Of a stretch of 64,000 nt of DNA, positions 4,403 to 60,404 are shown one piece after another. How positions within the stretch are numbered: position 1 is the first letter of the stretch; every line of letters begins with the position of its first letter. Under the pieces are notes generated by a model that was not told the origin of the DNA, made no database searches, and worked only from the letters and a program-made list of their open reading frames with translations. The translations under genes and the position numbers were made by a program. Origin of the DNA: Lentimicrobiaceae bacterium (GTDB lineage: Bacteria > Bacteroidota > Bacteroidia > Bacteroidales > F082); NCBI GenBank assembly GCA_015061295.1, contig SUWU01000004.1, positions 4,436 to 68,435 of the forward strand. The letters are read 5' to 3'.

Positions 4403-4437
4403 ACTTGTAGTTTTGTAGTCTTGTTGACTTGTAGTCT
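4403..4437. repeat. Word array R2: octamers CTTGTAGT/TTTGTAGT/CTTGTTGA
   Basis: Read directly. It ends 8 nt before the LOG -7 box. 19 nt of it recur, reverse-complemented, inside malQ (21482-21500). Confidence 0.9.
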
Positions 4438-4471: not shown

Positions 4472-5059
4472 ATGAAAGTTTGTATTTTCTGCGGAAGCAG
4501 TATGGGCAACGATGTAAGATACCAAGAGGCTGCTGCACACTTAGGCGAGGTTCTCGCACAGAATGATTGTACGTTATATTACGGTGGAGGAAATATCGGT
4601 CTCATGAAAATCATCGCTGACAAGATGATAGAGAAAGGGAAAGAAGTCATCGGCATAATAACGAAAGGCCTCATCGACATGGAGCTGGCTCATGATAACA
4701 TAACAAAACTCGTTGAAGTAGAGACAATGTCGGAACGTAAACTAATGTTAATAAACGACTCTGACAGTTTCATCGCGATGCCAGGTGGCTTTGGAACCTT
4801 AGACGAACTTTTTGAAATAGTCGTTCTCAACCAACTGTGCATCACCGACAAACCTGTAGCACTTTATAACACATTAAATTACTACGACAAACTAATAGAC
4901 TTCATCGACCACGCTGTAAGTGAAGGCTTCATCAGAAAAGAACATCGCGACAATATTATTGTCAGCGACAATCCAGAAGTTTTATTTAAAGAATTGAGCA
5001 GACATAAATCCATCGACATAAAACAATGGATTGAAGATATTAAAGAAGAAAGCAGATAA
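4472..5059 (+). CDS. LOG-family (TIGR00730) nucleotide 5'-monophosphate nucleosidase
   Basis: MKVCIFCGSS start and PGGFGTLDE motif. Start moved from 4379 to ATG 4472 because the TAnnTTTG box at 4445-4452 lies inside the longer ORF. Confidence 0.85.
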   Translation: MKVCIFCGSSMGNDVRYQEAAAHLGEVLAQNDCTLYYGGGNIGLMKIIADKMIEKGKEVIGIITKGLIDMELAHDNITKLVEVETMSERKLMLINDSDSFIAMPGGFGTLDELFEIVVLNQLCITDKPVALYNTLNYYDKLIDFIDHAVSEGFIRKEHRDNIIVSDNPEVLFKELSRHKSIDIKQWIEDIKEESR

Positions 5060-5113
5060 TTGACAATTAACAATTGACAATTAACAATTGACAATTAACA
5101 ATTAACAATTGAC
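5060..5113. repeat. Word array R3: heptamers TTGACAA/TTAACAA x7.7
   Basis: Starts the nucleotide after the LOG stop codon. Stop codons occur in all frames. Confidence 0.95.
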
Positions 5114-6180: not shown

Positions 6181-6296
6181 GTCTCTGACAATGACTCTGA
6201 CAATGACTTTGACAATGACTTTGACAATGACTCTGACAATGACTTTGACAATGACCTGAAGACTTGGTGACTTGGAGACTTGGAGACTTGGAGACT
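6181..6296. repeat. Word array R4: 12-mers CTGACAATGACT(C/T) x6, then octamers GACTTGG(T/A) x4.5
   Basis: Starts the nucleotide after the stop of the deaminase-fusion gene and is followed by TAAAAAAAA. Confidence 0.95.
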
Positions 6297-6337: not shown

Positions 6338-6411
<74 letters not shown>

Positions 6412-8860: not shown

Positions 8861-8945
8861 GTTAACAATTAACAATGTACAATTTACAATGACAGTTTGA
8901 TATTAGAACTAATTGTTAATTATTCATTGTTAATTGTACATTATT
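8861..8945. repeat. Word array R5: TTAACAA/TGTACAA/TTTACAA arm plus inverted ATTGTTA arm
   Basis: Starts right after the era stop. The arms can pair as a long imperfect hairpin. Confidence 0.9.
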
Positions 8946-8982: not shown

Positions 8983-10290
8983 ATGAGTAATATTGTTGCA
9001 ATAGTAGGAAGACCTAATGTAGGTAAATCGACATTTTTTAATCGTTTAGTTCAGACACGTCAAGCCATTGTAGAAGAGACGAGTGGTGTGACTCGCGACC
9101 GTCATTATGGTCACAGCGACTGGAATGGAAAGTCGTTTACGGTGATAGACACAGGAGGTTATGTCGTTGGTTCTGACGATATTTTTGAAGAAGAGATTAG
9201 AAAACAAGTCGAGCTTGCTATTGAAGAAGCCGACGTTATAATATTCGTCGTCGATGGCAAAGAAGGTCTCCACGTCCTTGACGAAGACGTTGCCTTGATG
9301 TTACGTCGCTCCAAGAAAAAAGTATTACTCGCTGTCAACAAGACCGACATCCCTAACAAGGAAAGTAACATCGCCGACTTCTACTCTTTAGGTCTCGGCG
9401 ACATCTTCGCTTTCTCAGCCATGACAGGCACAGGTACCGGTGAGCTTTTAGATGAAGTTGTGAAACATCTTCCTAACGACACAACAGATACTTACGATGG
9501 ACTTCCTCGCTTCGCTCTCGTAGGTCGCCCTAATGTTGGCAAGTCTTCTATGATAAATGCCTTCTTAGGTCATGAACGTCATATCGTTACAGACATTGCA
9601 GGCACCACACGCGACAGCAACAACACTCGTTTCAACGCCTTCAATATGGATTTCATCCTTGTTGATACCGCTGGTCTTCGTAAGAAAAGCAAAGTCTCGG
9701 AAAATATAGAGTTCTATTCAGTCATGCGTTCGATACGCGCCATCGAGGAATGCGACGTAGCAGCACTCATCATCGACGCAACACAAGGATTCGAGGCACA
9801 AGATATGAACATCTTACGTCTCATCGAGAGAAATAAAAAAGGTCTCGTCCTCATCGTAAATAAATGGGACTTAGTAGAAAAAGACTCCAACACTCACCTT
9901 CAGTTCGAGAAGATGATAAGAGAGAAGACAGCGCCTTTCACCGATTATCCAATCATCTTTACTTCTGCAATAAATCGTCAAAGGACATTCCGCGTCTTGG
10001 AGGCTTTACATCAAGTGTATGAAAACCGCGAACGCAGAGTACCAGTACGCGAACTCAACGACACATTATTAGAGATAATATCAGCACAACCTCCACAAGT
10101 TGCATCACGAAATCGTTATCTCAAGATAAAATATATCACACAGCTGAAGAGCCCTACTCCACAGTTCATCTTCTTCTGTAATCTTCCAAAAGACGTCAAA
10201 GAGTCATATTGTCGTTTCTTAGAAAATAAAATACGTCAGAATTGGGACTTCAACGGAGTGCCGATACAGTTATTTTTCAGAGAAAAATAA
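8983..10290 (+). CDS. der: Ribosome-biogenesis GTPase Der (EngA), double GTPase
   Basis: Two G domains (GRPNVGKST twice, DTGG/DTAG, NKTD/NKWD). 435 aa. Confidence 0.95.
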   Translation: MSNIVAIVGRPNVGKSTFFNRLVQTRQAIVEETSGVTRDRHYGHSDWNGKSFTVIDTGGYVVGSDDIFEEEIRKQVELAIEEADVIIFVVDGKEGLHVLDEDVALMLRRSKKKVLLAVNKTDIPNKESNIADFYSLGLGDIFAFSAMTGTGTGELLDEVVKHLPNDTTDTYDGLPRFALVGRPNVGKSSMINAFLGHERHIVTDIAGTTRDSNNTRFNAFNMDFILVDTAGLRKKSKVSENIEFYSVMRSIRAIEECDVAALIIDATQGFEAQDMNILRLIERNKKGLVLIVNKWDLVEKDSNTHLQFEKMIREKTAPFTDYPIIFTSAINRQRTFRVLEALHQVYENRERRVPVRELNDTLLEIISAQPPQVASRNRYLKIKYITQLKSPTPQFIFFCNLPKDVKESYCRFLENKIRQNWDFNGVPIQLFFREK

Positions 10291-10350
10291 TTGACAATTA
10301 ACAATTGACAATGACTGTGGACGATGACTGTTGTCCATTGTCTCATTGAC
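10291..10350. repeat. Word array R6: TTGACAA/TTAACAA then GACAATGAC..GTCCATTGTC inverted words
   Basis: Starts right after the der stop and is followed by TAAAAAAA and the hslR ATG. Confidence 0.9.
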
Positions 10351-12363: not shown

Positions 12364-15300
12364 TTATTTCTTAATGAAACGTCTCACAATATCACCTTCG
12401 TCAGTCTTAAGTTTGACAAAATAAACTCCAGCATTTAAATCTGTGACATCAACAACTTGTTGACTCATCGACTCGTTGACTCGTTGACTCAAAACCTGAC
12501 GACCGTAGATGTCGTAAATAGAAATCTCTTCAACATTAACATCTGTTGCGAGGAACAACTCATTTTCAACAGGATTAGGATAAACGTTAACTGTTGATGT
12601 CAATTCTTCTACTCCATCAATCAACTCCGTGTTGATCCTAATGTCGTCAACCATAAGACATACATTCTTAAATTTCTCACCGATATATTGTATCGCGACA
12701 TAAACCTCTTTGTTGTTATAATCTGCTAAATCGACTTCAACTTTCTCCCACTCTTCAGCAGCCTGACGCACATCATCGCCGAGCACGACAAAACTTTCAA
12801 AATCGTTGTCGGTATCAGAAATCAATATGCGATATTTTTCAAGTTCCTGATCCATCGTCTCTAAGAAGCGTGTTTTCACATAAAGTTCAAGATTAGACTT
12901 ATCGCCGAGTTTTAATTTAGGTGACATCAACCACACATCGCTTATCATTTCTTCTGTTTCATAGCCCACACAGAATGCAGCACCGAAACGTTCTCCAGAA
13001 TGAGGTGTGAAGCCAGGCAGAAGCTCTTCTGTCATAGCAGGTTTCGTAGATTCAGGATTAAAGGCGATGAAACCCACAGCTTCTCCACGATATTGATGTT
13101 CAAACATCCAGAAGTAATCAGTTGTTTGTCCGTTGCGATCTACTGTCGTCCAGCGAGGGTTGAAGACATCAGGAGCAGCATCAAAGTCATAACACGACTC
13201 GAAGTCCATAACATAAGGATTAGCCTCTTCTACGGAAGTAAAAGTCTTTGTCAGCTCATCGTTATCAGCATTTTCGTCTCCTTCGAGTAAAGTCTTAGCT
13301 ACTGCCACATAATCACCTACTTCTTTCATATTGATATTTTCAAAGTCAACCACTTTTTCTTCATATGGATACAGCGACACTTCTGCATCATAATCTGTAC
13401 CGTTAACAGTCAAGCGCACTGGCACATCGGCGTTCTCGTATCCTTTATTTTTAACTAAGACAGAAATGGTCTCATTTTCCGAGAACAAAGTAGCGTCTTT
13501 TACAGGAGCTGTGAATTTAACTACAGCAGCATCTTTTTCATAGACCGCAAGTTCAGAGTTAAAAGTAGCTCTTATCGACAAGGCAGGACCTATGATTTTT
13601 GTCAGATCATCACCAATTCTTTGATAACATGAATTTTCCAAGTCGTAAGGATCGACAGCGAGACCCATGTTATATGTTGAAAGTTGTTGTACTTCGAAAT
13701 AATACATTCCTGGAGCGAGTTTCATAGGATCCAATGTTATCTCTTTAAATCCGCCGAAGCCACGTTCGAACTCGGTATGAGTCACTAATCGTTCGATATT
13801 CAACTCACCATCTATAGCATAGATTGACAGCCCTATAGGTTTAGCCGCCATATCAGACTCTTCTTCGCCTATTTCTGCGAATCCTATTACGACAGAATTT
13901 AGTATGTCGGCGACGGTGATTGTATAGACGTTACCTACGTATAACTCATCGCCCCAGTTTCCTGTCCCCATCTCTATCGTCTCGATATATTCTGTTGCGT
14001 AAAAATCTTCCGTCACTATGATACTTCTAATGTCAAATATATTATCATCGATGTAAGCGTCTTCTTCTGCTGCCGTAGCTATCACTGTCAGATCTACTTG
14101 ATCGCCGATATTTTTCTCAGGAAGCACAGCCTTCATAGATATGACTTTATTTTCGTCAGAAGCTATATCGACGCCATCGCTTTCGCCCAATAAGGTCTCA
14201 CCTTCGTAAAGAGCCACTTTCACATCTGTCATGATTTCGGTGCCACGGTTTGTCACTGTGACGAAATATTCACCTTCGCCTGTCAGCTGAATTTGTGGGG
14301 TGAAAGGTGCTGCTGGATAAGTAACATCTTCTATTCTCAAGTCATATTGCGACACATTGGAGATAGCACATGTATAGAGATATAAGTTACAATTTTCTTC
14401 AGACTCATTCACGATAGCGAAGTTATAATTATCAGGCTCTGTTATAGTAACCATAAACTCTACCTCAGTATCACCTTCAATATTGTCATTCTCATACACT
14501 CTGACAAAGTCAGAAATATCTTCTCCTGATTTTCCCATCGCCACATACATTCTCGATGTCTCCCAGCCACCTTTTGAATATTGCAATTTAATACGAACCG
14601 AGTTTTCGAGATACAAACAACGTGTTATCAAAGCATTTTCAACTCCTGTTTGATCGGTACCAAACATTCCTGTCCACTCGTCTGTAAACCACGCAGCATC
14701 ATTTACCGCTGTCCAATATTCGCTATAATTTTCCCCATTGACAAAATCTGTCATTATAGGAAGTTCTGTAACGACATCATAATTGTTAACTACACCACTA
14801 AGAGTGCTTTCTGTTTCTTCTGAAGCTGTCGCTGTGACTTCTACCATATATTCACCTACTTCTGAGAAATCTGTTGTAGTGTTAAAATAAACCACTGCCG
14901 ATTCAGTAGGTAAAATCACTTCTGTAAATTCTTCTGTAACAACATCTCCTCCATTAACGCTATAAGTCATTGTAAAAGATGATGTCGGACCTGTTCCCAC
15001 ATTCTTCACCTTAACACCTACAACACTTGCATCGGAGAGGTCACAGTTAGAATAAGGAAGAATAACTTGTTCAATTTCAAGAAGAGGACTCACTTCCATC
15101 ATACCTGCGTCTATTGTCAACTCATCGATAAAGACATTCATACCTTCCACCGACTTCACATGGAAAGCGAAATAATAAACACCTTCAGTCTCGACGTCGA
15201 AGTTTATAATACGTTTCACCCATTCAGTCTGGTTGATAGCATAATCACCAATTATAGTCATCTCATCTACATTAGCCGTTGTACCATAGCGAACGTCTAA

Positions 15301-16530
15301 CAATTCTGTCGCATCTTCGCCGTTGATACATCTTGTATAAAACACCATGTGAGATGTTCCTGCTGGCATATGTATTGGCAATGAAATCAAGTTATCGTTA
15401 CCTGTACGGTCGCCACTCCATGAGCCAGAGCAGCTTACAGCACCCATTTCTCCATTTACGTCTTCAGTCCATTCATTATATTGCCAATAGCTATCGTCTT
15501 CGTTAACATCTTCCACTATCCAATCAGACTCAATACCATCTATACCGTAATCTGAGAAGTCGTAGTTAAAAGGAAGTTGAGAGACACCGATGTGCTTACA
15601 TTTGGCAGTCATTTTATCGTTAGATGTAATCATATCACCTTCAAGAGTAACCCAAGCCTCGACGACATATTGTTTTTCAACAGAGAGATCGGCTTTTGTT
15701 GTGAAAGTGTAAGTCGCTTTTTCGCCAGCCTCTATTGTCTCGGTATAAGTTTCGGTGACAGCTTCATTATCGTCTATTTGGTAGGAGACAGTGAAATTAG
15801 ATATTGCAGAAGTACCTCTGTTGGTTATCTCAATGGAAATATCTTCGCTGTCAGTCATATCCATGCCATTAGCTGGAACGATAAGATCTGTGATAGCAGC
15901 ATCGACATCTACATAAAGGAAAGCCATATCAACGTTATAACCATATTCGTTTACGCCATATTCTATCACGAAGCGATATGTGTTACCGCCTTGAAATTCA
16001 AAGTCATTAACCTTAGCATATTCGCCGTTAGTGAATATAAGACCGTCGCCAGGGAAAGGACATAAGATCATGAAATCGTAAGTTCCAGCAGGGATTTGTA
16101 TTGCGACAGCCTCATCGAAGACTATATTTGTTGAGTTTTCCGATGCGTCGGCATTCTCAGGAATGCTATATTCAAAGGCATCGTAGGTATCGTAATATGC
16201 ACTCGACCAATCATAAAACAGATTGTTGTAAGTGTCAGCATCGGCATCAAGAAGCATTTGGAAACCAAGCTGAGCAAACTCTCCAAAGACCTTATGAGCT
16301 TCTAATATGATTTCCGCTTTATCTGAAGGCACCTCTGATTCACTTCTATAGACATGTAATTTCGGTTGATTAGCATGATACCTCATCAACTCGTAGGTCA
16401 TATCACCATGACCGCGTAATTGTTCGATATTGAGAGCTTTCTTTTGTGAAGGAGACTCTCCAAAATTTAAAACTTGCCCCATTGCAAACATGCTGCACAT
16501 TGACAAGAAAAGTAAAAATAACTTTTTCAT
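12364..16530 (-). CDS. T9SS-secreted multidomain adhesin-like protein (DUF2436-like, CARDB-like, cleaved-adhesin/choice-of-anchor-J-like domains, type A sorting domain)
   Basis: Signal peptide. IILEAHKVF..GFQMLLDADADTY resembles DUF2436 of gingipain/hemagglutinin proteins. Repeated ITNRGT/VKNVGT CARDB-like units and DFES..WT..D adhesin-type motifs. C-terminus VNVYPNPVENELFL..GVYFVKLKT is a T9SS CTD. Confidence 0.8.
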   Translation of the reverse strand: MKKLFLLFLSMCSMFAMGQVLNFGESPSQKKALNIEQLRGHGDMTYELMRYHANQPKLHVYRSESEVPSDKAEIILEAHKVFGEFAQLGFQMLLDADADTYNNLFYDWSSAYYDTYDAFEYSIPENADASENSTNIVFDEAVAIQIPAGTYDFMILCPFPGDGLIFTNGEYAKVNDFEFQGGNTYRFVIEYGVNEYGYNVDMAFLYVDVDAAITDLIVPANGMDMTDSEDISIEITNRGTSAISNFTVSYQIDDNEAVTETYTETIEAGEKATYTFTTKADLSVEKQYVVEAWVTLEGDMITSNDKMTAKCKHIGVSQLPFNYDFSDYGIDGIESDWIVEDVNEDDSYWQYNEWTEDVNGEMGAVSCSGSWSGDRTGNDNLISLPIHMPAGTSHMVFYTRCINGEDATELLDVRYGTTANVDEMTIIGDYAINQTEWVKRIINFDVETEGVYYFAFHVKSVEGMNVFIDELTIDAGMMEVSPLLEIEQVILPYSNCDLSDASVVGVKVKNVGTGPTSSFTMTYSVNGGDVVTEEFTEVILPTESAVVYFNTTTDFSEVGEYMVEVTATASEETESTLSGVVNNYDVVTELPIMTDFVNGENYSEYWTAVNDAAWFTDEWTGMFGTDQTGVENALITRCLYLENSVRIKLQYSKGGWETSRMYVAMGKSGEDISDFVRVYENDNIEGDTEVEFMVTITEPDNYNFAIVNESEENCNLYLYTCAISNVSQYDLRIEDVTYPAAPFTPQIQLTGEGEYFVTVTNRGTEIMTDVKVALYEGETLLGESDGVDIASDENKVISMKAVLPEKNIGDQVDLTVIATAAEEDAYIDDNIFDIRSIIVTEDFYATEYIETIEMGTGNWGDELYVGNVYTITVADILNSVVIGFAEIGEEESDMAAKPIGLSIYAIDGELNIERLVTHTEFERGFGGFKEITLDPMKLAPGMYYFEVQQLSTYNMGLAVDPYDLENSCYQRIGDDLTKIIGPALSIRATFNSELAVYEKDAAVVKFTAPVKDATLFSENETISVLVKNKGYENADVPVRLTVNGTDYDAEVSLYPYEEKVVDFENINMKEVGDYVAVAKTLLEGDENADNDELTKTFTSVEEANPYVMDFESCYDFDAAPDVFNPRWTTVDRNGQTTDYFWMFEHQYRGEAVGFIAFNPESTKPAMTEELLPGFTPHSGERFGAAFCVGYETEEMISDVWLMSPKLKLGDKSNLELYVKTRFLETMDQELEKYRILISDTDNDFESFVVLGDDVRQAAEEWEKVEVDLADYNNKEVYVAIQYIGEKFKNVCLMVDDIRINTELIDGVEELTSTVNVYPNPVENELFLATDVNVEEISIYDIYGRQVLSQRVNESMSQQVVDVTDLNAGVYFVKLKTDEGDIVRRFIKK
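12459..12493. repeat. Octamer run TTGACTCA/TCGACTCG/TTGACTCG inside the T9SS sorting domain coding region
   Basis: Encodes SQRVNESMSQQ on the minus strand. Confidence 0.7.
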
Positions 16531-19585: not shown

Positions 19586-19678
19586 CACTCTGACTTTGAC
19601 TTTGACACTGACTTATGGACTTGGGGACTCGGTGACTTGGGGACTTGGGGACTCGGTGACTTGGGGACTTGGCGACTT
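19586..19678. repeat. Word array R10: hexamers GACTTT/GACACT, then octamers GGACTTGG/GGACTCGG/TGACTTGG
   Basis: Lies in the divergent gadC/hpt spacer and is followed by TTAAAAAAAA. Confidence 0.95.
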
Positions 19679-20296: not shown

Positions 20297-20321
20297 ATTT
20301 AAACAAAAAAATATTTTAAAA

Positions 20322-20891
20322 ATGTTAAACATAATAATTTTTGGGCCTCCAGGTGCAGGCAAAGGAACACAATCAGAGTTTATCAAAGAAAAATATAACT
20401 TAACATACATCTCTACAGGACAGATACTTAGAAACGAGATGGCAGCCGAAACAGAAATCGGATTAAAAGTGAAAGAAATCATCAGTCAGGGCGGACTCGC
20501 TTCAGATGAGATAGTAGCAGAAATAATAGAGAAATTCATAGCCTCTCATGCCGACGCTAACGGTTTCCTCTTCGACGGTTATCCTCGCACTGTGAAACAA
20601 GCCGAGATTCTCGATGAGCTCTTTAGAAAATACAATCTCAGTCTCAGCGGTGTCCTCAGCCTTGAAGTACCAGAAGATATTCTCGTGGAACGTATGCTCG
20701 AACGCGGCAAGACAAGCGGTCGCGCTGATGATAACATCGACTCTATCCGTCATCGCTTCGTAGAATACGACCAAAAGACTAAACCTGTCCTCGACTTCTA
20801 CCAAAATAAAAACGCACTCTACCCTATCCACGGCGTCGGAACAATAGAGGAGATTTTTAATAATATTTGCGAGGTGATAGAAAGATTATAA
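20322..20891 (+). CDS. adk: Adenylate kinase
   Basis: GPPGAGKGTQ P-loop, short LID type. 189 aa. Confidence 0.95.
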   Translation: MLNIIIFGPPGAGKGTQSEFIKEKYNLTYISTGQILRNEMAAETEIGLKVKEIISQGGLASDEIVAEIIEKFIASHADANGFLFDGYPRTVKQAEILDELFRKYNLSLSGVLSLEVPEDILVERMLERGKTSGRADDNIDSIRHRFVEYDQKTKPVLDFYQNKNALYPIHGVGTIEEIFNNICEVIERL

Positions 20892-20932
20892 GTCACCAAG
20901 TCACCAAGTCTGGCTCAGAGACTCGGTGACTC
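20892..20932. repeat. Word array R11: GTCACCAA x2 and inverted GACTCGGTGAC
   Basis: Starts the nucleotide after the adk stop and is followed by TAAAAAAAAA and the malQ ATG. Confidence 0.9.
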
Positions 20933-20945
20933 TAAAAAAAAGTGT

Positions 20946-22814
20946 ATGCAGAACGTTTTTGATACAAAGGTTTTTAAGGTCGTGTCGAAAGGCAAGGACG
21001 ACATCTCTTACGGATGGAAGGGTGCCGGAGTAGCTGTGCCTGTGTTTTCTCTTAAAAGCAGCAGCAACTTTGGCATTGGCGAGTTCCTCGACCTTAAACT
21101 ACTCGCTGATTGGTGCAATAAAGTCGGATTGAAAATGATACAGATTCTTCCGATCAACGACACCCGCACCGACGGCTCATGGGACAACTCATATCCTTAT
21201 AAAGCCATCTCGACAAAAGCTCTGCATCCTATCTATCTTAACCTCGACAAGATGGGACAACTCGACGATAAAAGCGACAGAGAATATTTCAGGCAACAGA
21301 AAGAAATATTAAACGCCAAAGACTACGTCGATTATCCCGAAGTGATGAAAGTGAAAGAAGCCTACTTCAAGAAAATCTTTCATCAGACATGGAATGACAT
21401 TAAAGAAAAAGAAGATTATAAAGTATTCTTCAACGAGAACAAAGACTGGCTCGTGCCATACGCATCTTTCTGTAATCAACGAGACTACAAGTCAACAAGA
21501 CAACAAGTAGAGTCGCAAAGTTCAATGTCAACGTCAGAGTCAGTGTCAATGTCAGTGTCAACGTCAGAGTTCTCATACTTCCTTCAATATCACCTCGACA
21601 AGCAGCTCAAAGAAACCATCGATTATCTTCATGAGAAAGGCATCGCTTTGAAAGGCGACATTCCTATCGGCATAGGCAGAGACAGCGTTGACGCCCTTGC
21701 CAACCCTGAACTTTTCAACTTAGACTGTCAAGCTGGTGCTCCTCCCGATGCCTTTGCCACCGAAGGACAGAATTGGGGTTTCCCCACTTACAATTGGGAG
21801 GCGATGGCTAAAGACGACTACAGATGGTGGCGCGAACGACTCACACATATGAGCCGCTACTTCGACGCCTACCGCATCGACCACATATTAGGATTCTTCA
21901 GGATATGGGAGATACCGATAGAATATTCACAAGGAACAATGGGGCACTTCTCCCCTGCCCTGCCTCTTGAGATTGGAAACGGGAAACGGGTACGGGAAAC
22001 GGGTACGGGGAACGGGTACGGGTACGGGGAACGGGATACGTCACTACTTCTCAGTGACTCGGTTACTCAGAGACTTGGTGACTTATTCCTAAAAGATAAG
22101 CACGACAGCAACAAATTTCATCCGAGGATAAACATGCACCTCACTCAGACTTATAACGAGTTGGATGAGACACAGAAAGAAACGTTAAACAAAATTTACG
22201 ACGATTATTTCTATCATAGAAATGAGGCGCTTTGGAAAGCAGAGGCTCTGAAGAAGTTACCTAAAATCATCGAGGCAAGCGACATGTTGGTATGCGGTGA
22301 AGACCTTGGCATGGTTCCAGCCTGCGTTCCAGAAGTGATGCAGCAACTTAATATCTTAAGTCTTGAAGTACAAAGAATGCCTAAGAAATTCGGCGCCACA
22401 TTCGTCAATCCAAAAGAAAATCCTTATCTCAGCGTCGATACCACATCCACGCACGACACCTCTACATTAAGAGGATGGTGGGAAGAAAACGGCGAGCTGA
22501 CAAATCGTTTCTACAGAGAGATGTTAGGTCATCATGAAGGCGCTCCTTATTTCGCAGAGCCTTGGGTTTGCAAAGAAATCATCAAACAACATATGGAATC
22601 TTCTTCGATGTGGGTCATCATTCCTATCCAAGACTATATAGCAATGGACGGCGACTTCCGCTGGGACCAGACCCAGAGAGAACAAATCAACATTCCTGCA
22701 AACCCACATCATCACTGGTGCTATAAAATGTATCAAAGCATAGAAGAACTTATCGAAAGAAATTATCTCAACGATATGATTTCTGATATAATCAAAGAAT
22801 CAGGAAGAAACTAA
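20946..22814 (+). CDS. malQ: 4-alpha-glucanotransferase (GH77) carrying two repeat-derived in-frame insertions
   Basis: VQILPINDT, YRIDHILGFFRIWEIP, CGEDLGMVP, STHDTSTLRGWW GH77 motifs. Low-complexity segments SMSTSESVSMSVSTSE and GNGKRVRETGTGNGYGYGERD..SDSVTQRLGDL are encoded by the word arrays. Confidence 0.9.
   Translation: MQNVFDTKVFKVVSKGKDDISYGWKGAGVAVPVFSLKSSSNFGIGEFLDLKLLADWCNKVGLKMIQILPINDTRTDGSWDNSYPYKAISTKALHPIYLNLDKMGQLDDKSDREYFRQQKEILNAKDYVDYPEVMKVKEAYFKKIFHQTWNDIKEKEDYKVFFNENKDWLVPYASFCNQRDYKSTRQQVESQSSMSTSESVSMSVSTSEFSYFLQYHLDKQLKETIDYLHEKGIALKGDIPIGIGRDSVDALANPELFNLDCQAGAPPDAFATEGQNWGFPTYNWEAMAKDDYRWWRERLTHMSRYFDAYRIDHILGFFRIWEIPIEYSQGTMGHFSPALPLEIGNGKRVRETGTGNGYGYGERDTSLLLSDSVTQRLGDLFLKDKHDSNKFHPRINMHLTQTYNELDETQKETLNKIYDDYFYHRNEALWKAEALKKLPKIIEASDMLVCGEDLGMVPACVPEVMQQLNILSLEVQRMPKKFGATFVNPKENPYLSVDTTSTHDTSTLRGWWEENGELTNRFYREMLGHHEGAPYFAEPWVCKEIIKQHMESSSMWVIIPIQDYIAMDGDFRWDQTQREQINIPANPHHHWCYKMYQSIEELIERNYLNDMISDIIKESGRN
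21482..21572. repeat. Word array R12 inside malQ: CAAGTCAACAAG words, then hexamers GTCAAT/GTCAGT/GTCAAC/GTCAGA
   Basis: Read in frame as STRQQVESQSSMSTSESVSMSVSTSE. Confidence 0.9.
21975..22085. repeat. Word array R13 inside malQ: GGGAAAC/GGGTAC units, then octamers CTCAGTGA/CTCGGTTA/CTCAGAGA/CTTGGTGA
   Basis: Read in frame as GNGKRVRETGTGNGYGYGERD..SDSVTQRLGDL. Confidence 0.9.
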
Positions 22815-22875
22815 CAATCGTTTTTATTGATAAGATTATCAATATTATCTAACTCATCAATTCAACAAAAATACA

Positions 22876-22883
22876 TATCTTTG
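22876..22883 (+). promoter_or_regulatory. Candidate -7 box for the OsmC-family gene
   Basis: tatctttg, 56 nt before the ATG. Confidence 0.45.
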
Positions 22884-22938
22884 CGTTGTTATAAAAAATG
22901 ACAATTAAACTAATTTTAACTAATAAAACTTAAATAAT

Positions 22939-23328
22939 ATGGCAACAATTTCAGGAAAGTATTTAGGAAACTTATGCAGTGAATTAACTCATAACGAATC
23001 AGGTGTAAAGATAAATGTCGATGGACATGGCAAAGGATTTTCGCCTGTCGATTTAACAGCTGCATCATTAGGTGCATGTATGATGGCGATGATGGGCTAC
23101 ACCGCTGAGAGCAAGGGCATAAACTTAGAAGGTTTAAGCATCGAAGTTGACAAAGTCATGGCAGATGCTCCACGCCGAATCGGAGAGTTCAACATTGTAG
23201 TCAACTTTGCACATCCATACAACGACAGAGATAAAGCTATTTTGCAGAAAGCCGCTGAGACATGTCCTGTCAAGAAGACATTAAGCAGCGATTGTAAAAT
23301 CAATGTCGTAATGAATTTCCCAGAATGA
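22939..23328 (+). CDS. OsmC-family peroxiredoxin-like protein
   Basis: SPVDLTAASLGACMM and ETCPVKKTL OsmC cysteine motifs. 129 aa. Confidence 0.8.
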   Translation: MATISGKYLGNLCSELTHNESGVKINVDGHGKGFSPVDLTAASLGACMMAMMGYTAESKGINLEGLSIEVDKVMADAPRRIGEFNIVVNFAHPYNDRDKAILQKAAETCPVKKTLSSDCKINVVMNFPE

Positions 23329-23465
23329 TGATGACGATGATAATGACGATGACGATGAACAATGACAATGACGATGACAATGACGATGAACAATGACGAG
23401 AGTTAGAATCAAAAATCATTGTCATTGTCATTGTCAATGTCATTGTCAGTGTCAATGTCAGAGTC
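23329..23465. repeat. Word array R14: GATGAC/AATGAC arm and inverted CATTGTC/CAGTGTC arm
   Basis: Fills the whole spacer between the convergent OsmC-family and DUF4296 genes. Confidence 0.95.
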
Positions 23466-23834
23466 TCACTTTTTTTTCTTAATTTCTTCTTGTTTGGTAG
23501 TGAAGTAAGCGTTAACAGAATCTACTATTGATTTCATCTTAGGAAGGTCGTTGGTATTGTAATAGTTAAGGTTCTCGATAAATATGGAGTCTGTGATACC
23601 ATAATGAGAGAATATAGTGTCGTAGGCTCGTTGTTTTAGGTTTGTTACGCTTTGGTTCCTGCCTCTTCTATAGTTGATAGATTGTTCTATGATCTGTACG
23701 TCAATCATAACATCTACCATTTGTTGTTCTGTCAACAATATCGACGGTGCTCCTTCTTTTGATTTATCATTATCACAAGCAATCAAAAGCAAGAGCATCG
23801 TCATTAGTAATATTGTCAATTTTTTAATTTCCAA
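23466..23834 (-). CDS. DUF4296-like lipoprotein
   Basis: Lipobox LLIAC. Size and position immediately downstream of recQ, overlapping it by 11 nt. Confidence 0.6.
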
Positions 23835-27125: not shown

Positions 27126-27174
27126 GAGACGCATCAATGTTGTGTTCATTTTGAAGGTATCATTGATACGTCTC
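27126..27174 (+). terminator. Long hairpin after kpsF
   Basis: 14-nt arms gagacgcatcaatg / cattgatacgtctc with one mismatch. Confidence 0.4.
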
Positions 27175-27946: not shown

Positions 27947-27989
27947 ACAATTTACAATTAACAATTTACAATTAACAATTTACAATTAA
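27947..27989. repeat. Word array R15: heptamers ACAATTT/ACAATTA x6
   Basis: Spans exactly from the lptB stop to 2 nt before the pssA ATG. Confidence 0.95.
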
Positions 27990-31807: not shown

Positions 31808-32980
31808 ATGAAGATATTCGTATTGCTATCGAGGATACCATGGCCGTTAGAGAAAGGCGACAAGCTGAGAGCTTATAACCAAATCAAGCAGCTCGCCAAA
31901 AATAACGAGGTGATACTATGTGCCCTTAATACAGACAGATACAACAACAAAGAGGAAGCCTTCAAAGCCTTGCAACCTTATTGCTCATCAGTGACATTCA
32001 TCGATATCAACAAAATGTCAATATTGGCAAATATAGCAAGAGCTTTCATAAAAGGATTACCATTTCAATGCGGATATTTCTACAACAGAAAAGCTCATAA
32101 GAAAATACATAACCTTATTGAGAAACACCAACCCGATATGCTGTTCTGCCAACTACTGAGAACAGCAGAATATATACGTCACGAAAACACCCCAAAAGCT
32201 ATAGATTATCAAGATGTCTTCTCCATGGGAATGAAAAGAAGATTAGACATAGCCCCTCTGTATCTGAAACCATTCTTCAAAATGGAATATAACAGATTAA
32301 AACGTTATGAACACGACATCTTCGACGACTTCAACATCAAGACAATCATCAGCAAACAAGACCGCGACCTTGTTGACCATCATAAAAAAGACGAGATACT
32401 AATAGTGCCTAACGGCGTTGACCATGAATATTATTCGCCTCAAAATCAAGAGAAAAGATACGACATCGTCTTTACAGGCAACATGGCTTACGCACCTAAT
32501 ATCAACGCAGTGGAATATCTTGCATATCATATCATGCCTTTGGTATGGAAACATCTTCCCAATGCAAAACTTTATATCGCTGGTGCAACGCCAGACCCTC
32601 GCGTTAAGAAAGTAGCCTCCGACAATGTCATCATCAGCGGATGGCTCAACGATATGAGAGATGCCTACGCACAATCTAAGATATTTGTCGCACCGATGAG
32701 AATAGGCACAGGCTTGCAAAACAAACTCCTTGAAGCCATGTCGATGAAGCTACCTTGCATAACGACACCTCTGGCTAACAACCCATTAGGAGCTGAAGAC
32801 AGAAAAGAAATCCTCGTGGGAAATAACGAATACGAACTCGCAGATCATATAATAACATTATTGACAGATAACGAAAAAGCCGACAACATGGCGCAAAACG
32901 GCTACGACTTCGTACATCGCATCTATGACTGGGAGAAAGCGACAAAGATTATGGAATTAAGAATGAACAATGTACAATGA
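31808..32980 (+). CDS. Glycosyltransferase family 4 (second copy)
   Basis: SRIPWPLEKGDKLRAY N-terminus and LLEAMSMKLPCITT GT-B motif. The last codons MNNVQ and the stop are encoded by a heptamer array. Confidence 0.85.
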   Translation: MKIFVLLSRIPWPLEKGDKLRAYNQIKQLAKNNEVILCALNTDRYNNKEEAFKALQPYCSSVTFIDINKMSILANIARAFIKGLPFQCGYFYNRKAHKKIHNLIEKHQPDMLFCQLLRTAEYIRHENTPKAIDYQDVFSMGMKRRLDIAPLYLKPFFKMEYNRLKRYEHDIFDDFNIKTIISKQDRDLVDHHKKDEILIVPNGVDHEYYSPQNQEKRYDIVFTGNMAYAPNINAVEYLAYHIMPLVWKHLPNAKLYIAGATPDPRVKKVASDNVIISGWLNDMRDAYAQSKIFVAPMRIGTGLQNKLLEAMSMKLPCITTPLANNPLGAEDRKEILVGNNEYELADHIITLLTDNEKADNMAQNGYDFVHRIYDWEKATKIMELRMNNVQ

Positions 32981-33059
32981 ACAATGAACAATGAATAATG
33001 AATAATGAATAATGAATAATAATAACTTGGTGACTCAGTGACTCAGTGACTTGGTGACT
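32963..33059. repeat. Word array R16: heptamers ATGAACA/ATGTACA/ATGAATA x8, then octamers CTTGGTGA/CTCAGTGA x4
   Basis: Begins inside the last 6 codons of the second GT4 gene and is followed by TTTTAAAAA. Confidence 0.95.
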
Positions 33060-33076
33060 TTTAAAAACAAATAGGT

Positions 33077-37688: not shown

Positions 37689-39554
37689 ATGACCATTCCC
37701 GACAAAATAAAATCAATCCTAAAAACCATTCCCACCGATCCAGGAGTGTATCAATATTTTGATGAGAAAGGTGAGATTATTTATGTCGGGAAAGCTAAGA
37801 ACCTGAAACGCCGCGTACACAGTTACTTCAACAAACAGCAGCAGAGCAGAAAGGTCAGCGTACTCGTGAGTCGCATCGCCGACATCAGATTTACCGTCGT
37901 GAACAGCGAGATGGAAGCGCTTCTCCTTGAAAACAATTTCATCAAGCAATATAAGCCGCGTTATAATATCTTGTTGAAAGACGACAAGACATACCCTTGG
38001 ATTTGTATTAAAAACGAACGTTTCCCGCGTATCTTCCTCACGAGGAAAAAAGTCAACGACGGCTCAACATATTTCGGACCTTATCCTTCGGTGATGACAG
38101 CAAAGACACTGCTTGAAATGCTGAGGCAGCTCTACCCTATCAGAAACTGTAAATTAATTTTAAAGGAAGAGAACATAAAGAACAACCATTATCGACCTTG
38201 TCTTGAATATCATATCGGAAACTGCAAGGCTCCTTGCGATGGAAGTATCAACGAAGATGACTATAACAAGATGATTTACAATGTTAAGAAAGTCATCAAA
38301 GGTAACATTCAGGAAGTCTTACGCGATATGAAATCGCAGATGATGGAGCACGCGGCAAAGTTAGAATTTGAACAGGCACAAGTCATAAAAGACAAATACG
38401 ATTTATTAGAAAACTATCACGCCAAGTCGGTAGTTTGCAGCAACACAGCCTACGACATGGAGGTCTTTTCTTTTGAAGACGCTGGCAATTCTTTCTATGT
38501 CAATTACATGAAAATCGTGGAAGGTGCCATCATACAATCGCATTCTTTTGAAATAAAACGTAAGTTGGAAGAGACAGCAGAAGAACTGCTTTCGATAGCG
38601 ATTGTTGAGATACATCAGATGAATGCTGGCACTGACAATGACTCTGACATTGACATTGACAATGACATTGACAATGACTCCTATATTAATAAGAATAAAA
38701 ATATTAGAGAGATTATTGTTCCGATAGAATTGAATATTAATATAGAAGGTGTGCGGCTGACTATTCCGCAGCGAGGCGAGAAATATGAGATTTTGGAACT
38801 GTCGCAGCGTAATGCTAAACAATATCGACTTGAGGTAGAGAAGCTACGTACCCTCGTCGATCCGGAGCGCCATACGAAGAGAATCCTAAACCAGATGAAA
38901 GAAGACCTGAAACTTCCTGTGCTACCAGAAGTGATAGAATGCTTCGACAACTCCAACTTTCAAGGCGACTATGCCGTAGCCGCGATGACGCAGTTTGTCA
39001 ATGCGAAACCTAACAAGAGCGGCTACCGACATTTCAATATCAAGACAGTAGAAGGGCCCAACGACTTCGCCTCTATGGAGGAGATAATATATAGAAGGTA
39101 TAGCAGACTTCTTAACGAAAACCAACGACTCCCCGATTTGATTGTCGTCGATGGCGGCAAGGGACAGCTTTCTTCAGCAGTTAAAATATTACAACAGTTA
39201 GGATTAAACGGTAAAATCAGCATCATCGGCATCGCGGAGAAGTTGGAAGAAATATATTTCCCTGGCGACAGCATACCTTTATATATAGACAAACGCTCCG
39301 AGACTTTGAAGGTGATTCAACACATAAGAGACGAAGCCCATAGATTCGGCATCACACATCACAGAAAGAAATTCGAGAAAGGCTTCATTCACTCAGAGCT
39401 CAACGACATCAAAGGCATTGGCAAGCATACCGCTGAGAAATTGATGTTAGAATTAAAATCTGTCAAGAATATCAAAGAAGCTGATTTAGAGACATTAACA
39501 GAGATTATCGGCAAAGCCAAGGCTGATATTATATGGAAATATTTCCATTCCTAA
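37689..39554 (+). CDS. uvrC: Excinuclease ABC subunit C, with a repeat-derived in-frame insertion
   Basis: GIY-YIG (GVYQYF..IIYVGKAKNL), UVR domain, endonuclease and HhH domains. Linker TDNDSDIDIDNDIDND is encoded by a GACAAT/GACATT array. Confidence 0.95.
   Translation: MTIPDKIKSILKTIPTDPGVYQYFDEKGEIIYVGKAKNLKRRVHSYFNKQQQSRKVSVLVSRIADIRFTVVNSEMEALLLENNFIKQYKPRYNILLKDDKTYPWICIKNERFPRIFLTRKKVNDGSTYFGPYPSVMTAKTLLEMLRQLYPIRNCKLILKEENIKNNHYRPCLEYHIGNCKAPCDGSINEDDYNKMIYNVKKVIKGNIQEVLRDMKSQMMEHAAKLEFEQAQVIKDKYDLLENYHAKSVVCSNTAYDMEVFSFEDAGNSFYVNYMKIVEGAIIQSHSFEIKRKLEETAEELLSIAIVEIHQMNAGTDNDSDIDIDNDIDNDSYINKNKNIREIIVPIELNINIEGVRLTIPQRGEKYEILELSQRNAKQYRLEVEKLRTLVDPERHTKRILNQMKEDLKLPVLPEVIECFDNSNFQGDYAVAAMTQFVNAKPNKSGYRHFNIKTVEGPNDFASMEEIIYRRYSRLLNENQRLPDLIVVDGGKGQLSSAVKILQQLGLNGKISIIGIAEKLEEIYFPGDSIPLYIDKRSETLKVIQHIRDEAHRFGITHHRKKFEKGFIHSELNDIKGIGKHTAEKLMLELKSVKNIKEADLETLTEIIGKAKADIIWKYFHS
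38632..38690. repeat. Word array R18 inside uvrC: hexamers GACAAT/GACATT/GACTCT
   Basis: Read in frame as TDNDSDIDIDNDIDND. 38633-38678 is identical to 56259-56304. Confidence 0.95.
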
Positions 39555-44307: not shown

Positions 44308-44381
44308 TGCTCCCACCTGGACTTGAACCAGGGACCAACTGATTATGAGTCAGCTACTCTAACCAACTGAGCTATAGGAGC
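44308..44381 (-). tRNA. tRNA with CAT anticodon (elongator Met or lysidine-modified Ile2); CCA not encoded
   Basis: Reverse complement GCTCCTATAGCTCAGTTGGTTAGAGTAGCTGACTCATAATCAGTTGGTCCCTGGTTCAAGTCCAGGTGGGAGCA folds as a cloverleaf. C4:G69/C5:G68 and the TTGGTC variable loop resemble E. coli ileX as I recall it. Confidence 0.9.
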
Positions 44382-45607: not shown

Positions 45608-46570
45608 ATGCAATTTCCAATATTTAAACGTACTAACAAATTAGAAAGGATATTTATATTATCGGCATTAGTCGTTATCGGTTTAATCATAGGTAGCGTA
45701 ATAGGTGTCATATTTCCATTTGTGACAGGACAAGATGTAACGTCGTTAAGTTCACTTCGTTTCATGCAAATCACCTCGCAAATATTCACTTTCGTACTTC
45801 CTCCTATGTTATACGCGATGTTAGTAAAAGAAGAACCAATGACAGCCTTAGGGTTAAAGAAAGTCACATATCATTGGTTCGTAATAGGTATTGCGATGAT
45901 GTATGCTATCTTACCTCTTAACAACATCTTTGCCGAATGGAATGCTGGCCTAAAATTGCCCGAATCGATGAGCGGTATTGAAGAAATGATGAGATCGATG
46001 CAAGAATCTGCCACAGAACTAACCGAAAGGATGTTAAATGTCAACAACATAGGAGGACTCATCATAAACCTCATTATGATAGCAGGTTTGGCTGCTTTAG
46101 GTGAAGAGCTGCTATTCCGCTCTATAATACAGACATCGTTAATAAAGATTTGCAGAAATGCACATATAGGAATATTCTTAGCTTCAGCGATATTCTCTTT
46201 CATTCACTTTGAATTTTACGGATTCATCCCACGACTTGTATTAGGACTGTTAATGGGATATATGTTCTATTATTCACGAAGCATCTGGGTACCAATGGCG
46301 ATGCACTTCGTCAACAACGGAACAGCCGTGGTTCTATATTACCTTAACAACATCGGGATAATAAATGTTGATGTTGATACATTCGGACAGACGGGAGTAT
46401 TGCCTCTAATAATGAGCATTGTAATAATGATTGCTCTGTTCTGGCTTGCGATAAGGAGAACGAGGAATGAGAATGACAATGACAATGACAATGACGATGA
46501 CAATGACAATGACGATGACAATGACGATGACAATGACGATGACAATGACGATGACAATGACAATGAATAG
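45608..46570 (+). CDS. CPBP-family intramembrane glutamic endopeptidase with a repeat-encoded poly-Asp/Asn tail
   Basis: EELLFRS, FSFIHF, HFVNN CPBP motifs. The last ~35 residues (NDNDNDNDDDNDND...) are encoded by a GACAAT/GACGAT array. Confidence 0.85.
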   Translation: MQFPIFKRTNKLERIFILSALVVIGLIIGSVIGVIFPFVTGQDVTSLSSLRFMQITSQIFTFVLPPMLYAMLVKEEPMTALGLKKVTYHWFVIGIAMMYAILPLNNIFAEWNAGLKLPESMSGIEEMMRSMQESATELTERMLNVNNIGGLIINLIMIAGLAALGEELLFRSIIQTSLIKICRNAHIGIFLASAIFSFIHFEFYGFIPRLVLGLLMGYMFYYSRSIWVPMAMHFVNNGTAVVLYYLNNIGIINVDVDTFGQTGVLPLIMSIVIMIALFWLAIRRTRNENDNDNDNDDDNDNDDDNDDDNDDDNDDDNDNE

Positions 46571-50372: not shown

Positions 50373-50410
50373 AACAAAAAAATCTAATTCTTAATTCAAA
50401 TGTCTCACCA

Positions 50411-50438
50411 CAACTATCAACTATTAACTATTAACTGA
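50411..50438. repeat. Word array R22: heptamers CAACTAT/TAACTAT/TAACTGA x4
   Basis: Lies immediately 3' of yidD on the minus strand. It is the reverse complement of the TTAATAG/TTGATAG family. Confidence 0.9.
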
Positions 50439-50439
50439 T

Positions 50440-50670
50440 TCAAGGTACAGGATCATAGCCACTTCCACCCCAAGGGTTACACGATAATATTCTTTTTATT
50501 GTAAGCCAACCGCCTTTTAAGGCACCATATTTTTTTATTGCTTCTATCCCATAGTTAGAACAGGTAGGAGTATATCTGCAGTTTCTACCTATAAAAGGTG
50601 ATAATGTAATCTGATAGATACGTATCAGAAGTATCAGTAAGTCAGCTGGTAATCGTAATAATCTTTTCAT
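50440..50670 (-). CDS. yidD: Membrane protein insertion efficiency factor YidD
   Basis: [31 protein letters not shown] signature. 76 aa. Confidence 0.95.
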
Positions 50671-50671
50671 T

Positions 50672-52779: not shown

Positions 52780-53787
52780 ATGGATCTCATAGAACAAATA
52801 AAACAAAATGCACGTGAAAACAGACAACGCATCGTGCTTCCTGAAGGCGACGAGGAAAGAACAATAAAAGCCGCCGACCAACTCATTGCCGATGGCATCG
52901 CTGATGTCATTCTCATCGGACCAGCCCAAAAGATCAAAGATATGGCTAAAGAGTTTGAGTTGAAAAACATCGACAAAGCCTGTATCGTAGATCCAAAGAA
53001 CAACCCAGACAGAGACAAATACGCCAATTTACTTTTTGAACTCCGTAAGAACAAAGGCTTGACATTTGAACAAGCACAAGAGTTTGCTGAGAACTTCATG
53101 TATCTCGGTGTTCTCATGCTCAAAGCTGGCGACGCCGACGGTTTAGTCAGTGGCGCTCGTAGCACTACAGGCGACATGCTCCGTCCTGCATTGCAAATCA
53201 TCAAAACTGCTCCAGGAGTATCATGCGTATCAGGAGCTTTCATCATGTTCCTTCCTAACGACAAATACGGAACCGATGGCAAGATAGTATGCGCCGACTG
53301 CGCTGTGACACCAGTTCCAACAGCAGAACAACTTGCAGAAATAGCAGTATGTACCGCCGACACAGCCAAGAACATCGCCAAGATAGACCCTAAAGTAGCA
53401 ATGCTCAGCTTCTCTACTAAAGGCTCAGCAAAACATGAAGATGTCGATAAAGTTATCAAGGCAACAGCATTAGCAAAACAGATGCGTCCTGATTTGTGCA
53501 TCGACGGAGAACTTCAGGCTGATGCCGCCATTGTTCCTTCTGTTGGCGCAAGCAAAGCTCCTAATAGCGATGTAGCAGGCAAGGCTAACACATTGGTATT
53601 CCCAAGATTGGAAGTAGGTAACATAGCATATAAACTCGTTCAACGTCTCGCTGGCGCTGAAGCAGTAGGCCCTGTACTTCAAGGCTTCGCAAAACCATGT
53701 AACGACCTCAGCCGCGGATGTTCTATCGACGACATCTATAAGTTAGTAGCAATCACATGTAACCAGGCGATAGCACAGAAACAATGA
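52780..53787 (+). CDS. pta: Phosphate acetyltransferase
   Basis: RIVLPEGDEERT, DGLVSGA, GELQADAA, NDLSRG PTA_PTB motifs. Confidence 0.95.
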   Translation: MDLIEQIKQNARENRQRIVLPEGDEERTIKAADQLIADGIADVILIGPAQKIKDMAKEFELKNIDKACIVDPKNNPDRDKYANLLFELRKNKGLTFEQAQEFAENFMYLGVLMLKAGDADGLVSGARSTTGDMLRPALQIIKTAPGVSCVSGAFIMFLPNDKYGTDGKIVCADCAVTPVPTAEQLAEIAVCTADTAKNIAKIDPKVAMLSFSTKGSAKHEDVDKVIKATALAKQMRPDLCIDGELQADAAIVPSVGASKAPNSDVAGKANTLVFPRLEVGNIAYKLVQRLAGAEAVGPVLQGFAKPCNDLSRGCSIDDIYKLVAITCNQAIAQKQ

Positions 53788-53817
53788 ACAATGAACAATT
53801 GACAATTAACAATTAAC
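53779..53817. repeat. Word array R23: TGAACAA/TTGACAA/TTAACAA heptamers
   Basis: Contains the last pta codons and its stop. Confidence 0.9.
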
Positions 53818-60284: not shown

Positions 60285-60332
60285 CTTTTTAATTATTAGT
60301 TAAACATTTAATTCTATTTTAAAAAATTGCTA

Positions 60333-60392: not shown

Positions 60393-60404
60393 CAAGAAAA
60401 AATT

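Follow-up and report, generated by a model that had tools for sequence, protein, structure and literature searches.

Borg tandem repeats that lie within open reading frames (ORFs) have units all divisible by three, are near-perfect and virtually locus-unique, and the repeat density of Borgs is 0.62% (Schoelmerich et al., bioRxiv 10.1101/2022.05.18.492195). The G-rich heptamer simple sequence repeats (SSRs) of Xanthomonas and Nostoc are mostly intergenic, are concentrated on the sense strand no more than 50 bp from stop codons, in some cases overlapping the stop, and occur in coding sequence less often than expected (PMC4692102). In cyanobacteria, the RNase P RNA gene harbours a short tandemly repeated repetitive (STRR) sequence at a tolerant position (Vioque 1997, as cited in PMC2858038). 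Here we analyzed a 64-kb stretch of contig SUWU01000004.1 from a Lentimicrobiaceae bacterium (hereafter the window), in which the malQ-like gene for a 4-alpha-glucanotransferase of glycoside hydrolase family 77 (GH77) carries arrays of 6-, 7- and 8-nt words at two sites. We consider it likely that these malQ segments are hypervariable arrays, driven by slippage and recombination and tolerated as probably disordered linkers. They are closest to the Borg tandem repeats and the cyanobacterial STRR, and are best filed as a variant of tandem-repeat-derived disordered insertions; their frame-filtered non-triplet units, their vocabulary shared throughout the genome and their recurrence at deletion scars of one conserved enzyme are notable as distinctive traits. 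A recent census of short tandem repeats reported a high density in Bacteroidota, coding sequence included, and our literature searches on Lentimicrobiaceae and Bacteroidales found no paper describing these arrays in this clade.

The likeness to Borg repeats lies in pervasive, fast-evolving and genome-specific tandem repeats standing both between genes and within ORFs, and in in-ORF repeats that make mostly disordered segments under frame-preserving selection, the malQ segments being probably disordered as judged from composition and from model confidence (predicted local distance difference test, pLDDT). In contrast to Borgs, the malQ units measure 6, 7, 8 or 13 nt, not multiples of three throughout, are imperfect and run through rotating codon phases; the vocabulary is common to many loci (10 for the hexamers, 3-6 for the octamers) instead of being locus-unique; the host is a bacterial chromosome; and arrays take up about 3% of the window, where Borg repeats reach 0.62%. 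With the STRR and heptamer SSRs the arrays share dispersed tandem words, proximity to stop codons and the occasional array inside a functional gene, for which the STRR of the RNase P RNA gene, as that case is relayed in the citing article, is the nearest precedent. They differ in occurring in Bacteroidota, in comprising many word families of period 6-8 rather than few heptamers, and in often forming inverted pairs and being translated within housekeeping protein genes.

The host gene, its two variable sites, their arrays and the catalytic codons are the following.

20946-22814, plus strand: malQ-like ORF for a GH77 4-alpha-glucanotransferase of 622 aa (Pfam PF02446).
21474-21569, plus strand: variable site 1, aa 177-208, NQRDYKSTRQQVESQSSMSTSESVSMSVSTSE; octamers and hexamers.
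21479-21518, plus strand: octamer array R12a, ACGAGACT ACAAGTCA ACAAGACA ACAAGTAG AGTCGCAA (period 8/16).
21522-21569, plus strand: hexamer array R12b, eight TCANNG units (SMSTSESVSMSVSTSE), from repeat finding and unit parsing.
21879-21881, plus strand: codon of D312, predicted catalytic nucleophile (YRIDH), which aligns with the RIDH motif of GH77 enzymes of solved structure.
21969-22082, plus strand: variable site 2, aa 342-379, EIGNGKRVRETGTGNGYGYGERDTSLLLSDSVTQRLGD; G-rich 6/7-mer array and octamers.
21978-22042, plus strand: G-rich array R13a, alternating 6- and 7-nt units AACGGG, AAACGGG, TACGGG and GAACGGG (period 13/6/19).
22050-22081, plus strand: octamer array R13b, CTCAGTGA CTCGGTTA CTCAGAGA CTTGGTGA, in codon phases 0, 2, 1, 0.
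22299-22301, plus strand: codon of E452, predicted acid/base (GEDLG), aligned to the EDLG motif of potato DPE1.
22455-22457, plus strand: codon of D504 (STHD), predicted to be the third catalytic carboxylate, which aligns with the THD motif of GH77 enzymes of solved structure.

Tandem Repeats Finder (TRF) placed four tandem arrays at the two sites, at 21476-21508 (period 8/16), 21522-21566 (6/18), 21978-22040 (13/6/19) and 22050-22083 (8/16). Arrays of period at least 6 covered 175 bp of the malQ ORF, against a mean of 0.8 bp and a maximum of 35 bp in 300 dinucleotide-preserving shuffles of the ORF; the malQ arrays are thus head-to-tail short units above chance, as in SSRs and variable-number tandem repeats (VNTRs). 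When the arrays were parsed into units, the codon phases of R12a rotated 2, 1, 0, 2, 1, and the 6/7-nt units of R13a and the octamers passed through phases 0, 1 and 2, whereas all eight hexamers of R12b began in phase 0. Because the 7- and 8-nt units rotate through all three phases, the periodicity is a property of the DNA and not of the codons, as a preliminary description of this DNA had proposed. That description had also reported two word arrays in frame in malQ; TRF recovered them, and the peptides it quoted occur verbatim in the translation. The sole R13b unit with its last triplet in frame reads AGA where its neighbours read TGA, in every strain. Tryptic fragments of MalQ that contain SSMSTSESVSMSVSTSEFSYFLQYHLDK or VRETGTGNGYGYGER would span the arrays. 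No inverted repeat was found in the window at 21460-21580 or 21960-22095, and a scan of the 64 kb for G-quadruplex-type motifs returned two, the ACGGG array of site 2 (21981-22040) and an array in queA.

The arrays in malQ are constrained in length. At nine loci, site 1 measured 96, 84, 126, 96, 120, 126, 114, 66 and 126 nt and site 2 measured 114, 108, 108, 66, 66, 141, 66, 108 and 66 nt, so that 18 of 18 measurements over both sites are multiples of three, as the preliminary description had expected of strain variants; array-poor orthologs have 15 or 36 nt at site 1 and 42-48 nt at site 2. Since loci found through intact proteins are biased to intact genes, a tblastn search of raw contigs was added as a control, and at 18 of 18 orthologous loci found in this way the ORF ran uninterrupted through the arrays. 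Altogether, no frameshifted or out-of-frame malQ allele was present among about 26 loci (18 from tblastn and 8 close-strain loci from protein look-up). The array-bearing intergenic spacers of the same strains (adk-malQ, permease-hpt and osmC-DUF4296), which served as length controls, gave 0, 1 and 2 mod 3 without preference. The frame constraint is therefore specific to the in-gene arrays, and because the frame is kept in the malQ sites and not in the intergenic arrays, the former are probably translated.

The content of the arrays is not conserved between close strains. Six loci (the window, L081, L083, L084, L085 and L088) are about 99% identical outside the two sites, with a synonymous divergence (dS) of about 0.045, and show copy-number polymorphism in steps of whole units, as expected of an SSR or VNTR. 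R12b has 8 hexamer units in the window, 6 in L081, 3 in L088 and 8, reordered, in L084. The window has one copy of the octamer GTCGCAAA and L087 has four; in L085 there are four units of the GCGCAGAG type, the difference between the window and these two loci amounting to three units or 24 nt. Other differences concern whole alleles. The window, L081, L083, L086 and L088 carry the ACGGG array; L084, L085, L087 and L001 lack it and have an unrelated 29-nt stretch in its stead. At site 1, L083, L086 and L001 carry a different 72-nt piece with a 16-nt-arm hairpin:

L083 3551-3596, also in L086 and L001: alternative site-1 hairpin allele, AGACGCGTCAATGATT / AAACATTGACACGTCT, with 16-nt arms.

The stem of this allele resembles a lone intergenic hairpin, GAGACGCATCAATG...CATTGATACGTCTC, at window positions 27126-27174. 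As a dispersed element the L083-type hairpin was absent from the window, and among 163 fetched loci it was found in malQ of L083 and L086 only; a family akin to repetitive extragenic palindromes was considered and is unsupported, the stem motif GACGYRTCA being at chance frequency in the window. When arrays of one allele type were compared, mismatches mostly amounted to 3-6% (range 0-5.6%), while the flanks had about 1%. We also aligned malQ over 20931-22814 of the window with L084, L087, L001 and L086 and followed identity along it. L087 and L001 are 82-93% identical at first and then 97-100% identical over most of about 1.5 kb from about position 21200, with a drop to 44-62% at site 1, while L084 and L087 show 100% identity for about the first 200 nt and 77-96% (mostly 80-90%) thereafter. 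This mosaic pattern implies frequent homologous recombination among the L084, L087, L001 and L086 lineages, and the collapse of identity at site 1 in the near-identical L087 and L001 marks the sites of malQ as hotspots of turnover.

The gene that bears these arrays is intact and under strong purifying selection. Its product matches PF02446 (E=4.3e-136) over residues 31-596, corresponding to profile positions 1-460 of 465, and is assigned to the DPE2 lineage, yet it lacks CBM20 domains. D312, E452 and D504, whose catalytic roles we take from established GH77 knowledge, are all invariant in an alignment of 89 sequences (A2), and the ratio of nonsynonymous to synonymous substitution (dN/dS) outside the two array sites was 0.03-0.09 between the window malQ and nine relatives. 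Close homologs are plentiful in metagenome-assembled genomes (MAGs) of animal-gut Bacteroidales, labelled Bacteroidales or Lentimicrobiaceae at NCBI; the DNA of eight close relatives was fetched by exact protein look-up and more distant orthologs by tblastn, and a scan of metagenome contigs found no relative closer than 66% and hence added zero strain variants.

An AlphaFold2 model of MalQ based on alignment A2 had a mean pLDDT of 81.7 and a predicted TM-score of 0.86 (a model from a shallower alignment, made up of 44 close homologs, had a mean pLDDT of 48.6 and was discarded in favour of the deeper A2), and matched the amylomaltases 1TZ7, 1CWY, 6M6T and others with E of about 1e-25 to 1e-27 and a target-normalised TM of about 0.8. 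Long segments with pLDDT below 50 occurred only at residues 181-203 and 345-367, which are the array positions. The segments are rich in Ser, Thr, Glu, Gly and Gln, and their disorder is read from this composition and the low pLDDT alone. According to the model, site 1 would lie between helices 156-179 and 204-230, in a helical excursion between barrel strands 2 and 3, and site 2 in the excursion between barrel strand 4, with the nucleophile D312, and strand 5, with E452; both would be outside the (beta/alpha)8 barrel core, in agreement with the surface loops that the preliminary description expected. A comparable situation is known from Plasmodium, where low-complexity inserts driven by extreme AT bias and codon-level repeats (Asn/Lys) occur in conserved housekeeping proteins. 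These too are slippage-derived, fast-evolving disordered loops between conserved blocks of housekeeping enzymes; however, they are eukaryotic and are not 7- or 8-nt words held in common with intergenic arrays.

The comparison with other GH77 enzymes indicates that the arrays did not split a continuous core. DPE2-type GH77 enzymes of other Bacteroidota have about 905 aa with CBM20 domains, and outgroup DPE2-type enzymes carry conserved and unrelated native segments at both positions, of about 37 aa at site 1 (YLRDKYKTSDFREW...YD...) and about 75 aa at site 2 (ER.TKPYIR.H...TQRKI...IRDGL). Both are lost in the clade of the window, L003 and L004 retain the first only, and L005-L014 the second only. 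The nearest array-poor ortholog (L089/L019), which is syntenic, encodes a MalQ of 572 aa, 75% identical, with 5 and 16 aa at sites 1 and 2, and had no TRF array at a score of at least 40 in 7.7 kb. As the outgroups have native segments and the array-poor ortholog only 5 and 16 aa, the arrays fill deletion scars and are not insertions into a continuous core. Of the earlier claim that the conserved enzyme was colonised in frame, the translation in frame stands, and the picture of insertion is replaced by one of filled scars. NQRDYKST at the margin of site 1 aligns with YLRDKYKTS, LSDSVTQRLGDLF at the margin of site 2 (LSDS..Q.L.DLF) with LSESQIDxLF, and LSDSVTQRLGD, encoded by R13b, with the LSESQIDG-type residues of array-poor orthologs. 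Because the margins still align with ancestral residues, the arrays may have grown partly in place; the alignment suggests partial growth from local seeds rather than insertion.

The words of the malQ arrays belong to a larger vocabulary. About 40 arrays, totalling 2014 bp, make up 3.1% of the window; they are mainly intergenic, often in inverted pairs, and many begin on or beside a stop codon. Exact 10-mers of three of the four malQ arrays recur in clusters elsewhere in the window. Those of the hexamers match at 23432-23461, 56265-56310, 6192-6237 and 19602-19613 and in two other ORFs, with intergenic arrays of the same words at 23419-23460, 56259-56324, 6186-6257 and other places, and a regular-expression census of at least three consecutive TGACNN units, the other strand of the TCANNG family, counted 10 loci in the window, where shuffles gave none. 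Octamers of the CTCAGTGA/CTTGGTGA type stand in the intergenic arrays 20889-20931, 33025-33060 and 6260-6294, with exact 10-mer matches over 20889-20923, 33025-33060 and 6260-6273, and the ACAAG octamers of the intergenic array 4418-4437 are reverse-complement words of R12a, each octamer family having 3-6 loci in the 64 kb. The ACGGG array had no other copy in the window nor, outside malQ, in the 163 fetched loci. The statement that malQ and intergenic words are the same is accordingly right for the hexamers and both octamer arrays and wrong for the ACGGG array.

The spacer directly upstream of malQ carries such words as well:

20892-20935, no strand assigned: adk-malQ intergenic hairpin between the adk stop and the malQ start, octamer words GTCACCAA x2 / CTCAGAGA CTCGGTGA.

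Its inverted repeat is 13 nt long and 92% complementary, and its two arms expand independently among strains, from 1 to 5 units. The spacer and the in-gene arrays have words in common in both lineages: the CTCAGAGA and GGTGAC words of the window spacer are those of malQ site 2, and the ACAAG words of the L086 and L001 spacer are those of malQ site 1. The L086 and L001 spacers consist of wholly different words (ACAAG family) from that of the window, and in L089, which is array-poor, a plain stem-loop, AGAGACGTCA...TGGCGTCTCT, occupies this position.

Arrays have also arisen at the same sites in related clades and in other enzymes of the window. In a sister clade (61-67% identity) site 1 holds other arrays, made of GTTCAAAG octamers and of AGCCAAC and GTCAACA heptamers, and a sub-loop of the retained site-2 segment holds four GACAACA units whose reading in three phases gives DNRQQTTDN; at site 2, a lineage of 85% identity has GATTCTCA x4. 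The same permissive loops of malQ have repeatedly been colonised. Two further housekeeping genes of the window carry translated arrays:

38630-38680, in the plus-strand ORF 37689-39554: UvrC, in-frame TGACAA/TGACAT hexamer array, translated NAGTDNDSDIDIDNDIDNDSY, the site-1 word family on the opposite strand.
60948-61041, in the plus-strand ORF 60572-61864: QueA, in-frame GTCCCCGT octamers followed by GTCANN hexamers, translated LRVPVSPCPRVPVSRSLSVSVSESTSMSEST.

The antisense strand of the QueA array, at 60958-60985, is the only other G-quadruplex-type motif of the window. As MalQ, UvrC and QueA are cytoplasmic housekeeping enzymes, adaptive variation of a surface is argued against.

These observations would fit the following course of events. 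A repeat process pervading the genomes of this uncultured gut Bacteroidales lineage would generate the malQ arrays as VNTRs of 6-, 7- and 8-nt units. Their lengths would change by slipped-strand mispairing and by units undergoing unequal exchange, and whole alleles would be replaced through homologous recombination or gene conversion, either from strain to strain or from one array to another. Purifying selection would then purge variants that are out of frame, contain stops or harm the structure. An array could persist where the position is permissive, being the scar of a DPE2-type native segment already lost, as long as the total length remains a multiple of three and no stop codon falls in the frame that is read. 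What remains would be translated as linkers rich in Ser, Thr, Glu, Gly and Gln, probably disordered, and the arrays are most likely tolerated passengers and not functional modules.

Several points weigh against this account. Slippage alone leaves unexplained the recurrence of a few word families at many unlinked loci, the whole-allele swaps in near-identical genes, and the words common to the upstream spacer and the in-gene arrays; because of this recurrence and these swaps, arrays must to some extent be copied from one another or stem from a sequence-biased generator. One allele, that of L083, L086 and L001, forms a 16-nt-arm hairpin instead of a direct array, the low pLDDT of the array segments may partly reflect a thin alignment in those columns, and a role at the level of the nucleic acid, for instance through the G-quadruplex motif at 21981-22040, is possible. 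The lineage might, though we doubt it, have its own sequence-biased process for generating or copying arrays, such as the templated addition of units or gene conversion directed from array to array. If so, a dedicated process would write 6-8-nt words at stop-anchored gene ends, in hairpin arms and in permissive enzyme loops, its non-triplet units would be frame-filtered, it would constitute a chromosomal bacterial counterpart of the Borg repeats with a mechanism of its own, and regulatory roles through G-quadruplexes or slippery hairpins would be possible.

It is also conceivable, but in our opinion unlikely, that the arrays are mobile or copied modules, that is, array or hairpin cassettes inserted or pasted from intergenic arrays by template switching or gene conversion. 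The word families present at many loci, the match between words of the adk-malQ spacer and of the in-gene arrays in both lineages, the resemblance of the site-1 hairpin stem (L083, L086, L001) to the hairpin at 27126-27174 and the replacement of whole alleles in near-identical backgrounds all speak for such modules, which we judge to have an equally slim chance of making the arrays a functional analogue of the Rickettsia palindromic elements. The latter are reportedly discrete and palindromic, about 100-150 bp long, with a family consensus. As in that case, lineage-specific repeat DNA lies in frame in conserved proteins at surface positions compatible with function, and in malQ the ORF is intact, the lengths are 0 mod 3 and the low-pLDDT loops fall on the arrays. 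However, we found no discrete element, consensus or boundary: only short words are held in common, the ACGGG array is unique and has no donor in the window or the 163 fetched loci, and the in-gene arrays of the window are direct tandem words without an inverted repeat or a fixed length, the 16-nt arms being confined to the alternative L083 allele. Variation in single-unit steps, array margins aligning with ancestral residues and the chance frequency of the hairpin stem motif in the window are likewise at odds with transposed modules, and mosaic recombination between lineages accounts for the sharing of alleles without transposition. The analogy with Rickettsia palindromic elements made in the preliminary description was therefore abandoned.

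A selected function is quite improbable, whether as tunable flexible linkers that alter how MalQ behaves, as control of transcription or translation by G-quadruplexes or hairpins, or as a phase-variation switch in which a change of one 7- or 8-nt unit frameshifts malQ. It is true that units not divisible by three are a classic substrate of phase variation, that the 64 kb contain just one G-quadruplex-type motif besides the ACGGG array, that arrays occupy the same sites in several lineages and that a regulatory role was proposed for the G-rich heptamers found close to the ends of genes in Xanthomonas and Nostoc (PMC4692102). Short non-triplet units within or beside genes and unit gain or loss are likewise features of phase-variable contingency loci (SSRs in ORFs or promoters, for example of Haemophilus; compare PMC8262952). 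Nevertheless, none of the roughly 26 loci, 18 of them found without requiring an intact gene, was frameshifted, and the targets are GH77, UvrC and QueA, cytoplasmic housekeeping enzymes instead of surface, host-interaction or restriction genes; moreover, the array-poor ortholog manages without arrays and array content differs between close strains. A role of the malQ arrays in phase variation is thus unsupported by the sequences at hand. Finally, an artefact of repeat assembly, or a decaying gene collecting junk, is hardly credible. Short-read MAG assemblies are error-prone in repeats, and in MAG JAZOCI01 malQ is split over two contigs (L020/L071); yet that break is not at an array and is silent on array instability, and arrays occur in assemblies made independently from many samples, where they differ coherently by unit steps. 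With a dN/dS of 0.03-0.09 and intact catalytic residues, the pseudogene reading fails, and as judged from these comparisons both the artefact and the pseudogene are effectively refuted.

Other arrays of the window deserve mention. Heptamer arrays of AATTNAC/AATGAAC lie at 5058-5113, 8867-8887, 10289-10309, 27949-27983, 32962-32989, 53783-53817 and 61952-61979; 7 of 7 are co-oriented with the adjacent upstream gene, and five overlap its stop codon, the stop triplet being part of the first repeat unit in those five. The co-orientation of AATTNAC arrays with the gene whose stop they touch (7/7) adds to the likeness to STRR and heptamer SSRs. About 17 copies of AATGAC (46466-46566) form the last 33 or so codons of a CAAX-protease-like (Rce1-like) ORF at 45608-46570, whose C-terminal tail is thereby written by the array, and the MalQ ortholog of L014 is also extended C-terminally through an array. 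An octamer array, ACTCGTTG, at 12455-12490 lies in the 3' part of a large gene for a protein sorted by the type IX secretion system (T9SS; ORF 12364-16530, minus strand), within the region for the Por_Secre_tail C-terminal sorting domain.

A scan of 20300-23500 for promoters and terminators gave background level. Rfam returned only two tRNA genes, at 6338-6411 and 44308-44381, both on the minus strand, and no known RNA family at any array; the first tRNA is directly downstream of a long hexamer-plus-octamer array (6183-6296). Read by eye, the gaps 60285-60571 and 50373-50671 seem to contain small unlisted genes, namely for a Pmp3/YqaE-like proteolipid on the plus strand at about 60400-60550 and a YidD-like ORF on the minus strand in the second gap.

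In summary, this locus offers a strain-resolved natural example of 7- and 8-nt repeats living inside essential-type enzymes, in which only the frame-restoring length classes survive, and only where the fold tolerates a floppy linker. It illustrates how probably disordered protein segments are created de novo and turned over rapidly on a bacterial chromosome, with independent recurrence at the same loops in sister lineages, and it marks two insertion-tolerant positions in DPE2-type GH77 enzymes. For this uncultured gut Bacteroidales group, short-word arrays amounting to about 3% may serve as an aid to strain typing and are a hazard for assembly and annotation, and the lineage may become a system for studying how a genome-wide repeat vocabulary originates.

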